Source: a virus (taxonomy: Duplodnaviria > Caudoviricetes). From it: 64,000 bases of DNA. The stretch spans positions 64,001-128,000 of IMG/VR virus record IMGVR_UViG_2706796476_000001; one strand, 5' to 3'. Shown piece after piece: positions 7,923-46,831 of this stretch. A program made the position numbers and the translations under genes. Numbering within the stretch: position 1 is the stretch's first letter; each line of letters opens with the position of its first letter. Under the pieces are notes generated by a model. That model worked only from the letters and a program-made list of their open reading frames with translations, was not told where the DNA came from and made no database searches.

Positions 7923-8969
7923 CTATTTGAGTGTTACTTTTACCTCACCTGCTCGGATAATTTCCGATCCTTTTAGAACGACGTTACTCTTTAAGTTATC
8001 GAAGCTGACATCGTAAATTAGTTGTCTGTCTATGTATTTAATTACACTGGACAAATCCGACAGTACGAGACTTTGAGACGTTTGCATATTGTTAAGGTAT
8101 CTAGTAACCTCTGTTGTGATCTTTTGGTTGAATGCGCTTGTAATACCTGCTTTGTTATTTAACGTGACAGTTACGCTTACGTCTACGTTCTTCTTCTCTA
8201 CCGGAAGAACTCTTACTTGTATGCCCGCAGGTCTGTAGTCTTCGAGCGTGAGGAGAATTTTCTCTTTTACACTATCCGGAAGGTTCCCATTCCGATCATG
8301 AGCATAGATGTTAACTCTGCCTGTCTCCTCTTCGATCCAAACACCTGCAACTTCTGTTACTGTTCTAGTACCGTACTCTAAGGCAGGTACCGTAGCACGG
8401 CTAAGCGCTGTAATGAAAGCATTAAATCTTGACCGTTGCTCTTCTAGAGGCTCCTGATCTTGCCCTGTTTGGAATGCTGCTGGGTTGTTTACTTCCTTGA
8501 CGTTAGCTATAGGAGATTGCATAACGTCAATCACGTCTTCAGGAATGTTTCCTGTAGAGCCCGGAGATAAGCAGTATACTTCAAACTCAGCTAAAACTGA
8601 CCCTCTCGGAATAACATAGTCAACTCGTGTTTCGTATAGTTGTGTGTACTGCGGCATACTGGAACTGAATCTCGATCCCCTTGAAATAGTAATGTCAGTT
8701 TGTGTCGAATTGTGGAAGGACACCTGCACTACTCCGTACGCCCTTACAGCTTCTTTACGTTTGAAGCCAAAAGCGTTATAGACTCCTTGCTCTACAGCTT
8801 CTAGCATGTTTTCTCGGGTTAACACATAGAACTGTTCCAGTTCAATTGCTATAGACTCATAGATGGCACGCATAGCACTTCCTACAGAAAAATCGTTAAC
8901 ATCATGTGTATTTGTAATGGTGTTATCTACAAGCCTTGAGTATATCTCTGACATTCGTTTAAAACGCAT
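7923..8969 (-). CDS. baseplate J-like protein
   Basis: DFSVGS...GQDQEPLEEQRSRF...RPAGIQV motifs. Confidence 0.85.
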   Translation of the reverse strand: MRFKRMSEIYSRLVDNTITNTHDVNDFSVGSAMRAIYESIAIELEQFYVLTRENMLEAVEQGVYNAFGFKRKEAVRAYGVVQVSFHNSTQTDITISRGSRFSSSMPQYTQLYETRVDYVIPRGSVLAEFEVYCLSPGSTGNIPEDVIDVMQSPIANVKEVNNPAAFQTGQDQEPLEEQRSRFNAFITALSRATVPALEYGTRTVTEVAGVWIEEETGRVNIYAHDRNGNLPDSVKEKILLTLEDYRPAGIQVRVLPVEKKNVDVSVTVTLNNKAGITSAFNQKITTEVTRYLNNMQTSQSLVLSDLSSVIKYIDRQLIYDVSFDNLKSNVVLKGSEIIRAGEVKVTLK

Positions 8970-42913: not shown

Positions 42914-43372
42914 GTAAGTTAACGTAGGGTCAAACCGGCAACCACCCTACCTGTATTCAGCACCGCCACTCGACACCCGAGGGTACCTCTCGGCAAGTAT
43001 TGGCATAGAGCCTTCTACGGTTTTAATTCGGGTTTTAAAAGTACTCTCCGTGGTCCGCATTGGCAAGAGGCGTGAGAGCATCTATGACGTAGAAGAGGAA
43101 GAAAAATTCATTATATCTTGTAGTTGCTACATTCCATAGCCTAACGTGCGGTGAGCCGGATTATTTGTACGTCGTAAGTCGTTAATCGTATACCCGTTTT
43201 ACATTCCCACACTTTTTGGATTGTCAGTAATGTCCCCTATTTTAGGGTTAAGCAGTTGAGATATGCTCTCAACCAAAGCAGATTTTCCTCTTCTATCGTC
43301 TACTGCTGGTTTGCACCAGCTATCAAGGTAGAACTTGTCTACCCTCATAGCTAAGGCAAAATGCCTAGCTGC
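42914..43372 (-). ncRNA. putative large structured ncRNA downstream of the DIP1984/DUF6847-like gene
   Basis: No ORF. At least 8 hairpins, a GCAA tetraloop, an 11+4 bp long-range helix (43285-43300 with 43086-43100) and four tandem 7-mers (43163-43190). Confidence 0.65.
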
Positions 43373-45351: not shown

Positions 45352-45435
45352 TGGGACAGGTGGGATTCGAACCCACTCAGTGATCCGACACGAGATTTAC
45401 AGTCTCGCCTAACTCTCCAACGTTAGCGCTATCCC
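45352..45435 (-). tRNA. tRNA-Tyr(GTA)
   Basis: CGAGA-CTGTAAA-TCTCG arm, long variable arm, GTTCGAATC T-loop. Confidence 0.88.
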
Positions 45436-45548
45436 GGGTCACGACTAGTTGGCGCTCTAGTCGTTTAAAAAGGTAATCAAACGTATAACTATGTCACTAG
45501 TTTATTTGTTCTGAAATACGGAACACAAGATGAAATAAAGACTTACAT

Positions 45549-45620
45549 TGAGAATACCAAGACTCGAACTTGGATAACTGGAGTCACGTCCCAGCGCTTT
45601 ACCGTTAAGCTACATTCTCC
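45549..45620 (-). tRNA. tRNA-His(GTG), atypical
   Basis: Cloverleaf; anticodon loop ACGTGAC (A32, C33); discriminator A rather than C. Confidence 0.7.
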
Positions 45621-45629
45621 ATGATGATA

Positions 45630-45703
45630 TGGTATGGTCTAAGGGAGTCGAACCCTTACCCGCTGGTTGGAAGCCAGCAATTCTACCGTTAAACTAAGAC
45701 CAC
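45630..45703 (-). tRNA. tRNA-Gly(TCC)
   Basis: GCTGG-CTTCCAA-CCAGC arm; encoded CCA; atypical acceptor (G1-U72, A73). Confidence 0.8.
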
Positions 45704-45709
45704 ATGAGA

Positions 45710-45780
45710 ACTGCCTAGAGAGGAGTTGAACCTCTCTTGTGATGGTGTTTGAGCCACCACACTAATCGTAGATAGGCAGT
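45710..45780 (-). ncRNA. D-arm-less tRNA-like element
   Basis: 8-bp terminal stem ACTGCCTA/TAGGCAGT, T-arm GAGAGG-TTCAACT-CCTCTC and a hairpin with loop GCTCAAA. Confidence 0.55.
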
Positions 45781-45789
45781 ATTATTACA

Positions 45790-46258
45790 CTTAAAAACCT
45801 ATTCGCATGTCTTTGGTCAAACTGGTTCTAACTTTCACTAAAGCCTAGAATTGTATAAGCTTAAGTTATCCCTTCCGTCTCTTCTACGGGTAGTCACCCT
45901 CGTAGATTCTGTGCAGAGTACGGAACTTAAGATGATAATACTCTAAGTAGCAGAACCTGACAGGTGATCAGCCCGTTGCACGGATCAGGTGCTTAATAGC
46001 TCTGCTACCCATAGAGTAGGATTCCCAGTAAAGAAACCGAATAAGACCACTGGGAACGGGGTTGTCCTGCTTGGCAAAACCACTCGAACCCAAGCTAGAC
46101 TTCCCTGTCTTATTTTGTATACCTCTTTCTCACAGGTGGTTAAATATGTGGAGGCGGTACAAGTTGCCCCGTTTAAGCCGCAGGGGAAGGCAGCTGCAAT
46201 ATTGTTTAATGCCGTTGCATCGGGACGAACCACTTGCGCTAGCTCGTTAGTGTGCTAG
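45790..46258 (-). ncRNA. putative large structured ncRNA(s) within the tRNA cluster
   Basis: Many nested helices: 45860-45931, 45939-46018, 46022-46056, 46100-46189. GC-richer than its flanks; strand inferred from the surrounding transcription unit. Confidence 0.6.
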
Positions 46259-46582
46259 TTACCTGTTTAGAATACGCACATTCATTTCTTCTACTACCTC
46301 ATCTCCATCGTGCAGGTAGTAGTGTTCAACTAACGATCGTTGATAGTTATCCGGCAAGTCATATAGAATAACTGTCCTATTCTTGATAGCCCCTGAGTCA
46401 GGTAAGGTAGTTTCAAAAACCTTATGGTCTTCAGTTATCTGAATATCTCCTACGGTAGGGTTATGCGCCCAGTGGTTGGTAATCTCGCTAAGAGGGTTGT
46501 TAGCAGTACCTCTAAATCGGTAAAGAACTCCCGGATAGTTATACATCTCCACTCGTTCAGTTACGTTCCCAACATTGAACAC
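46259..46582 (-). CDS. hypothetical protein
   Basis: GTG start with GAGG RBS; 107 aa. Confidence 0.55.
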   Translation of the reverse strand: MFNVGNVTERVEMYNYPGVLYRFRGTANNPLSEITNHWAHNPTVGDIQITEDHKVFETTLPDSGAIKNRTVILYDLPDNYQRSLVEHYYLHDGDEVVEEMNVRILNR

Positions 46583-46831
46583 GTAAGCTACCTCTAGTGA
46601 GACACCCGTAGATGCTTGATTTTCTCCCTCACTGCCTTCTTCAATAATGTTGTCGTTAATGTTGTTTCACCTCCCTATATAAAACCTAACCTGTTAGGTG
46701 TGGGTGTAAGTCTAAGGTGAAAATAAAGTCAAAATCAAAGTCAAATATAGTCAGGTGTGAGATAATATACTAGAGGTAATCACACCAATTACCTCTGAGT
46801 AGGTTGCATTTAACGACTGTTTCCTAGTCTA

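Follow-up and report, generated by a model that had tools for sequence, protein, structure and literature searches.

Genomic setting of the structured stretch

The stretch described here lies in a tRNA operon of a 151-kb virus (IMG/VR record IMGVR_UViG_2706796476_000001). We analyzed positions 64,001 to 128,000 of this record, and this whole 64,000-nucleotide piece of DNA is referred to as the window; all coordinates are positions in it unless another record is named. By blastn, the nearest relatives of the record are the Bacillus phages Bobb, phiAGATE, and SDFMU_Pbc, which belong to Agatevirus (Bastillevirinae, Herelleviridae), and the window is that of an Agatevirus-like Bacillus phage. Read along the minus strand, the region begins with tRNA-Asn, a tRNA-like element, tRNA-Phe, tRNA-Met, an open reading frame at 46259-46582 (hereafter ORF107), and the structured stretch. 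It continues with another tRNA-like element (45710-45779), then tRNA-Gly, tRNA-His, and tRNA-Tyr (45352-45703; identified with ARAGORN and Rfam), and a deoxyribonucleotidase gene (NT5C). All of the tRNAs that ARAGORN places around 45860-46248 are on the minus strand, as is the RNA.

A preliminary description of this DNA had reported a gene-free span at 45790-46258 that adjoins a 107-aa ORF. The adjacency is correct, since the stop codon of ORF107 (46259-46261) abuts the stretch, and the span is free of genes. Its extent had to be revised, however: the conserved core occupies 45860-46248, and positions 45780-45859 are a variable spacer that differs in length and sequence from one relative to the next. 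The tRNA-like element beyond the spacer is kept in Bobb, phiAGATE, and two contigs from Logan (L009 and L013), and it is annotated as a tRNA-Glu pseudogene in phiAGATE; neither ARAGORN nor the Rfam tRNA model calls a tRNA at 45710-45779. In another Logan contig (L010:3870-4388), an HNH_3 endonuclease gene takes the place of the 3' half of tRNA-Gly. This insertion runs from inside the anticodon loop to tRNA-His, and the RNA upstream of it is unaltered.

A consensus scan of the minus strand returned one weak promoter-like match (9/12, at 45963-45935), which falls inside the RNA; from ORF107 to the tRNAs it returned nothing that resembles a terminator. Because of this, a single transcript is most likely, and it would comprise ORF107, the RNA, the tRNA-like element, and tRNA-Gly, tRNA-His, and tRNA-Tyr in that order.

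Homologues found in close relatives

A blastn search of 50,697 phage records found the RNA only in Bobb, phiAGATE, and, in part, SDFMU_Pbc. Logan contigs were reached through the ORF107 protein, which has five cluster representatives among 5.8 billion proteins; they contributed additional copies on L009, L010, L012, and L013 and a fragment on L011. Exact and degenerate patterns drawn from the three most conserved segments recovered only phiAGATE and Bobb again in IMG/VR and had no match in JGI metagenome contigs. A pattern for the two heptaloops of P7 (described below) had 12 other matches in IMG/VR, none of which (0/12) had the hairpins.

We also built two covariance models, R1 from elements P6-P7 and R2 from P2-P5, the latter trained without SDFMU_Pbc. 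Between them, the two models were run against Grass, P59, EfV12-phi1, phage K, Bastille, SPO1, and W.Ph., and they yielded nothing credible. One match to the sequence patterns in 185,579 species genomes, in a Doudnabacteria MAG, was attributed to chance, and R2 has no match there. In W.Ph. (L043:2188-2321; W.Ph. 8687-8820, minus strand), R1 matched at 19 bits a hairpin whose loop resembles that of P6 (GUCUGUAUCGGUU) and the long stem after it; this match was likewise judged to be chance, because it lies antisense within the coding gene gp011. ORF107 and the DUF6847 gene, tried as a route to further relatives, are both restricted to the same genus. Because the blastn, Logan, and pattern scans gave nothing else, the RNA is known from about eight closely related genomes and contigs. 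The homologue collection proposed in the preliminary description amounts to these copies from one small genus.

The stretch does not behave as a coding sequence

The original view that the stretch holds no credible gene is borne out by the relatives, in which its open frames are not conserved and no frame has a third-position bias or an excess of synonymous changes. Within a 232-nt indel-free block, variable columns are spread evenly over the codon positions in all six frames, non-synonymous changed codons outnumber synonymous ones two- to fourfold, and most frames contain stops in most relatives. The listed open frames (62-89 aa in length) are not kept on the RNA strand of the relatives, homologues of the stretch differ by single-base indels, and the candidate frames have no match in Pfam or PHROG. 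A tmRNA-like tag frame ending in ...P-A-A-stop was considered and rejected, as a 1-nt indel breaks it in Bobb and it is not conserved.

A small protein might nevertheless be encoded here, for example by the 89-aa frame of the plus strand or the 82-aa frame of the minus strand. Such frames (62-89 aa) do occur in the window, and open frames of 65-96 aa are present on the plus strand of every relative. The even spread of variation over codon positions, the preponderance of non-synonymous change, the stops and single-base indels among homologues, and the empty Pfam and PHROG searches all speak against this reading, and we regard it as extremely improbable.

Predicted secondary structure

We folded alignments of three, seven, and six sequences with RNAalifold. 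Most helices agree among the three folds, and from them we curated eight elements, P1 to P8, all on the minus strand. P1 (46224-46248) begins 10 nt past the stop codon of ORF107 and is a 9-bp hairpin with a GCGCAAG loop; its pairs 13/33 and 14/32 each occur as three standard pair types. P2 (46186-46221) is an interrupted hairpin with one compensatory change, from C-G to U-A in phiAGATE. P3 (46163-46181) is a small hairpin in the CCCCUG...GGGGC segment. Its sequence is nearly invariant across seven copies, it has several mutually exclusive partners, and the RNAalifold runs disagree on its fold. P4 (46115-46162) is a long hairpin with the base CCUC/GAGG, and it is followed by J4/5 (46106-46114), an invariant single-stranded linker with the sequence AAUAAGACA.

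P5 (46059-46105) is a hairpin with 13 bp, an A-A mismatch, and a conserved 15-nt loop, and P6 (46021-46057) has 11 bp and a conserved 15-nt loop of its own, UCUUAUUCGGUUUCU. P7 (45944-46011) is a three-way junction in which a 12-bp stem carries two small hairpins. These arms have stems of 4 and 5 bp, and each ends in a 7-nt loop of the form CUGAUCN (45982-45988 and 45965-45971), the GAUC core of which is self-complementary. A hypervariable linker (45932-45943) separates P7 from P8 (45860-45931), a 72-nt extended hairpin that is closed by CUUAAGU/ACUUAAG and is almost invariant.

Every pairing listed in the preliminary description can be found in the sequence at the place given there. The pairing of CTTCCCTG (46100-46107) with CAGGGGAAG (46181-46189) is present with one bulged G, as are those of GCTTGG (46069-46074) with CCAAGC (46090-46095) and of TTCCCAGT (46022-46029) with ACTGGGAA (46049-46056). 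The long stem with a branched tip is found at 45944-46011, and the nested set CTTAAGTT/AACTTAAG at 45860-45931. Covariation does not support the proposed pseudoknot. That reading stems from the segment CCCCUG...GGGGC...CCUCC...GAGG...CAGGG, in which several mutually exclusive pairings can be drawn, and the segment is better described as a set of alternatives that the data do not resolve. A pseudoknot between J4/5 and the P6 loop was also tried and rejected: this best long-range complement, of 7-8 nt, is reached by 167 of 2000 shuffles (8%).

Pairing and covariation support an RNA fold on the minus strand

To score the fold, we examined its 109 pairs in the six full-length sequences. On the minus strand, 98.3% of the 654 cells hold standard pairs, compared with approximately 40% in controls in which the 3' partners were slid by 1-3 columns. 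Additional pair types number 26, versus 5-12 after sliding, and the fold has a covariation score of 0.098, versus at most 0.037 for these controls. G-U pairs occupy 80 of the 643 kept cells, and the mirror image of the structure on the plus strand pairs in just 86.9% of cells, so the minus strand, which is also that of the tRNAs, is the RNA strand. The minimum-free-energy z-scores are modest, at -2.9 for the minus strand and -2.2 for the plus strand, and the comparison of homologues argues more strongly against a chance fold than they do.

The strand data also bear on the idea that the inverted repeats act as DNA, serving as a protein-binding, replication, or packaging site. The repeats are dense, and a palindromic TGATCA/GATC motif occurs twice. 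However, each of the 80 G-U cells corresponds to an A-C mismatch on the other strand, which would be meaningless in duplex DNA, and RNA helices accommodate series like G-C to G-U to A-U. We find a role at the DNA level scarcely credible.

Covariation, a check suggested at the outset, gave a divided result. Among the six full-length copies it is weak because their divergence is low: three pairs only have changed on both sides, a number that 13 of 500 shuffles reach. Adding SDFMU_Pbc to the P6-P7 alignment brings the pairs altered on both sides to five, a number that none of the shuffles attained (0/500), and 99.5% of its cells hold pairs. For P7 the figure is 100%. Variation is slight in P8, P3, and most of P4, and these elements are neutral on their structure.

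The SDFMU_Pbc copy, from which the comparison learns most, is about 90% identical in P1-P3 and P6-P7, and its P4-P5 sequence cannot be aligned. Folded alone, it has a minimum-free-energy structure with the same order of hairpins. Its P4 keeps CCUCC/GGAGG around a different 29-nt insert, and R2 scores it at 80 bits. In the R2 alignment, all four outer pairs of P5 persist, as do four of its six inner pairs, with replacements such as G-C to U-A and G-C to A-U. Compensatory changes are found in P5, P6, and P7; those in P7 comprise C-G to U-A and A-U to G-C in the stem and G-C to A-U in the second hairpin. Because of this last change, the two-hairpin form of the P7 junction is favored over a pairing of one GAUC with the other. 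A deletion in SDFMU_Pbc has taken out P8 together with the spacer, the tRNA-like element, and the acceptor part at the 5' end of tRNA-Gly, which indicates that P8 is dispensable in at least one lineage. A truncated remnant of tRNA-Gly follows directly after P7 in this phage (L004:2217-2290). The mosaic make-up of this copy implies the existence of versions that have diverged further.

Invariant and hypervariable segments alternate

The conserved core runs from 10 nt past the ORF107 stop codon to 45860, and the next 80 nt differ in every relative. Positions 46028-46226 are 84-90% identical to Bobb and phiAGATE, compared with 58-82% for ORF107. Approximately 20% of columns vary in the RNA core versus approximately 51% in the adjacent gene, and the RNA has evolved about 2.5 times more slowly than ORF107.

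Loops are conserved to the same degree as stems: with the P7-P8 linker set aside, the share of variable columns is 17% among paired ones and 19% among unpaired ones. The 15-nt loops of P5 and P6 have one or two variable positions each and the 9-nt J4/5 has none, while the P7-P8 linker varies in 14 of its 18 alignment columns. Recent common descent alone can hardly account for such an alternation of invariant and hypervariable segments.

The upstream gene ORF107

ORF107 (46259-46582, minus strand), which ends with its stop codon immediately before the RNA, is a real and conserved gene; it is a member of phrog_26549 and falls in no Pfam family. It bears a coding signature, with 43, 32, and 71 variable columns at the first, second, and third codon positions and about as many synonymous as non-synonymous codon changes. 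Its product is probably a protein of 95 aa that starts at the ATG at 46546. The start is uncertain, as gene calls for homologues range from 95 to 110 aa. The frame also remains open upstream of the GTG at 46582, as far as a stop beside a strong ribosome-binding site, GGGAGGTGA, near 46667; between 46546 and 46672, no ATG, GTG, or TTG lies at the usual distance after the GGGAGGTGA site. The AlphaFold model of the protein has a pLDDT of 39 and is unusable, and a search of the protein atlas returned sub-threshold leads only.

Co-occurrence with ORF107, also raised in the preliminary description, holds throughout, as the RNA lies together with this gene in every locus found. The partnership between protein and RNA that had been proposed is unsupported. 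All that speaks for it is adjacency in one genus, and in phage Grass a distant homologue of ORF107 (phrog_18938, 30% identity) has a different ORF-free stretch behind it. This stretch is long and leads to a tRNA, and neither R1 nor R2 matches it.

Searches against described RNA families

No Rfam 15 model (4227 in total) matched the stretch at its gathering score when the whole window was searched, and none did at E up to 10 when the search was limited to 2.3 kb of the locus or to 426 nt alone. The earlier statement that the RNA belongs to no known family therefore holds for this database. The sole match in the 426-nt search (10.7 bits) is on the other strand and is due to chance. These negative results cover ROOL, GOLLD, group I and group II introns, RNase P RNA, tmRNA, 6S RNA, OLE, and raiA.

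Several specific candidates were rejected. The group I intron model (RF00028) has no match, and the flanks are not a split tRNA or gene: the 5' flank is the end of a complete ORF and the 3' flank is the variable spacer. The tRNA model (RF00005) has no match in 45840-46265 at E up to 10 and ARAGORN finds no tRNA, so the stretch is not a string of decayed tRNAs. ARAGORN also finds no tmRNA, and the tmRNA model (RF00023) matches only the T-arms of neighboring tRNAs. RNase P RNA, 6S RNA, OLE, raiA, and the other large bacterial RNAs in Rfam have no model match.

The stretch could in principle be a diverged member of one of these families (ROOL, GOLLD, group I intron, RNase P RNA, tmRNA, 6S, or others) that the models have missed. 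Its context resembles that of ROOL and GOLLD, and large RNAs can drift beyond the reach of covariance models. Given that Rfam 15 is empty at E up to 10 apart from the one chance match, that the tmRNA searches found only tRNA T-arms, and that an intron would need split flanks, we consider this very unlikely. The likeliest product of the 400-base stretch is a folded non-coding RNA with no match among the described families. Because it is non-coding, conserved, and structured in a strand-specific manner and has no Rfam match, a new RNA family is the best reading; as far as can be told from sequence, the best explanation would be an uncatalogued family of structured RNAs, approximately 390-400 nt long and, as sampled, limited to Agatevirus-like Bacillus phages.

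Possible roles of the RNA

We think it somewhat probable that the product is a stable folded RNA that makes tertiary or intermolecular contacts and thereby serves as a scaffold or decoy, and is not a mere protective 3' structure. Its size, the number of its elements, and its invariant single-stranded loops argue for this reading. Cleavage by RNase P at the 5' end of the tRNA-like element would free the 3' side of the RNA from the common transcript. The freed RNA could then act in trans during infection as a stable scaffold or decoy, and its contact surfaces may be the large loops, which are conserved, and the identical pair of CUGAUCN heptaloops.

A cis-acting role is a reasonable though unlikely alternative. 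In this case the stretch would be a structured 3' UTR or intercistronic spacer that shields the ORF107 message from 3' exonucleases once the tRNAs have been removed, or that organizes the processing of the tRNAs, and it would do nothing in trans. Its position fits, as it starts 10 nt past the ORF107 stop codon and ends shortly before the tRNA-like element. A promoter or terminator of its own was not found, ORF107 lies alongside in every locus found, and the phage genome offers no long antisense target: none exceeds 12 nt, which matches chance expectation. On the other hand, one or two hairpins are enough to protect a 3' end, far less than the eight elements spread over 400 nt here, and the nearly invariant 15-nt loops and the invariant single-stranded linker would be superfluous. 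Moreover, the Grass homologue of ORF107 does not have the present RNA behind it.

A more elaborate possibility, which we consider improbable, is that the RNA represents a third, independent class of tRNA-island RNA that functions through its CUGAUCN heptaloops. The GAUC cores might form kissing contacts that build homo-oligomers, as in ROOL and GOLLD, or the heptaloops might be decoys of anticodon stem-loops. In the decoy variant, the two P7 hairpins would imitate anticodon stem-loops and divert a host enzyme that cuts or modifies anticodon loops, and the tRNA pool would thereby be protected.

It is also distinctly improbable, in our judgment, that the stretch is a functionless spacer, left by decayed tRNA genes or a lost gene, in which sequence is conserved by kinship and the hairpins are fortuitous. 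Every copy comes from one genus, the window and Bobb are also at least 90% identical in other non-coding parts of the module, the z-score of the fold is modest, and covariation among the six full-length copies is weak. Yet the RNA varies less than half as much as the adjacent gene, hypervariable linkers stand beside invariant loops, and substitutions in stems keep pairing in 98% of cells on one strand only. The architecture is kept in SDFMU_Pbc where the P4-P5 sequence has been replaced, and a tRNA-like match is absent from the stretch at E up to 10.

To our knowledge, large structured RNAs of unknown function are rare, and the phage examples ROOL and GOLLD proved to form cages of a kind without precedent. 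The cultivable phages phiAGATE and Bobb, together with a tractable host (Bacillus pumilus or B. subtilis), make this a small and genetically accessible case. Should the stretch prove to be merely a processing spacer, it would be a useful caution for similar calls of "ornate" RNAs in phage tRNA clusters.

Comparison with other RNAs of phage tRNA islands

Ordinary spacers in tRNA operons are short and unconserved. Like the spacers and leaders that RNase P and RNase Z process, the present stretch lies among tRNAs, has a tRNA-like boundary, and would be co-transcribed with them; it differs in its 400-nt length and its conserved loops and helices.

A closer parallel is found in the window itself. 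Another structured stretch, at 42914-43372, is in the same operon and on the same strand, is ORF-free, and is similar in size. It follows a small gene (DUF6847) and precedes tRNA-Met, so that the order is likewise gene and then tRNA. No homology between the two stretches is detectable. The stretch at 42914-43372 carries a 27-nt motif (CACGCCTCTTnnCAATGCGGACCACGG, 43048-43074, minus strand) that is near-identical in phages Grass and P59. Its Grass copy (L031:4913-4939) falls within the gap of 840 nt behind Grass_64, the homologue of ORF107, and its P59 copy (L032:6234-6267) within the spacer that separates tRNA-Asp from tRNA-Pro. From these occurrences, the motif may represent a small RNA element with a wide distribution among the tRNA islands of Bastillevirinae. 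Grass and P59 have this motif in common with the stretch at 42914-43372 but share nothing with the present RNA.

Phage K, another member of Herelleviridae, has two abundant lncRNAs that adjoin its tRNA genes (PMC9241854). One of them, lnc002 of this Kayvirus, lies between a small ORF and the tRNA cluster on the same strand, as the present RNA does (PMC9241854). The two lncRNAs, lnc001 and lnc002, are 635 and 1154 nt long and their transcription has been observed, whereas the present RNA is predicted from sequence. No similarity between them was found with nhmmer or blastn or by searching the whole phage K record with R1. That lnc001 and lnc002 are abundantly transcribed indicates that stretches of this kind can be real RNAs. 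We also observed that part of the lnc001 region (phage K 13632-13768, minus strand; L017:1133-1269) matches the DUF3800-I RNA (RF02969) at 43.4 bits, the gathering score of 44.2 being just above this, and that phage K has a TEG147-like match upstream of tRNA-Met.

ROOL (RF03087), which is about 580 nt long, is encoded in phages or prophages near tRNA islands, and the present RNA likewise lies within the tRNA cluster of a Herelleviridae phage; the ROOL covariance model has no match here at its gathering score or at E up to 10. GOLLD (RF01998) exceeds 800 nt and has a conserved 3' half; its model has no match either, and the conserved core here is approximately 390 nt. Bacillota phages and prophages encode both of these large RNAs, which fold intricately, often lie near tRNA islands, and form RNA-only cages that are held by kissing loops (PMC12286853). 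The likeness to GOLLD and ROOL drawn in the preliminary description stands as an analogy of context, and the many conserved loops of the present RNA add to it. It does not extend to size or range, since the present RNA, at approximately 400 nt, is smaller and its distribution, one phage genus only, is far narrower. If the stable-RNA reading is true, an unrelated family would occupy the niche of ROOL and GOLLD, and the tRNA islands of lytic Bacillota phages would repeatedly evolve large folded RNAs. With its narrow distribution and moderate covariation, the present RNA is a credible candidate for a new structured family within a known category, the phage tRNA-island RNAs that include ROOL, GOLLD, and the lncRNAs of phage K.
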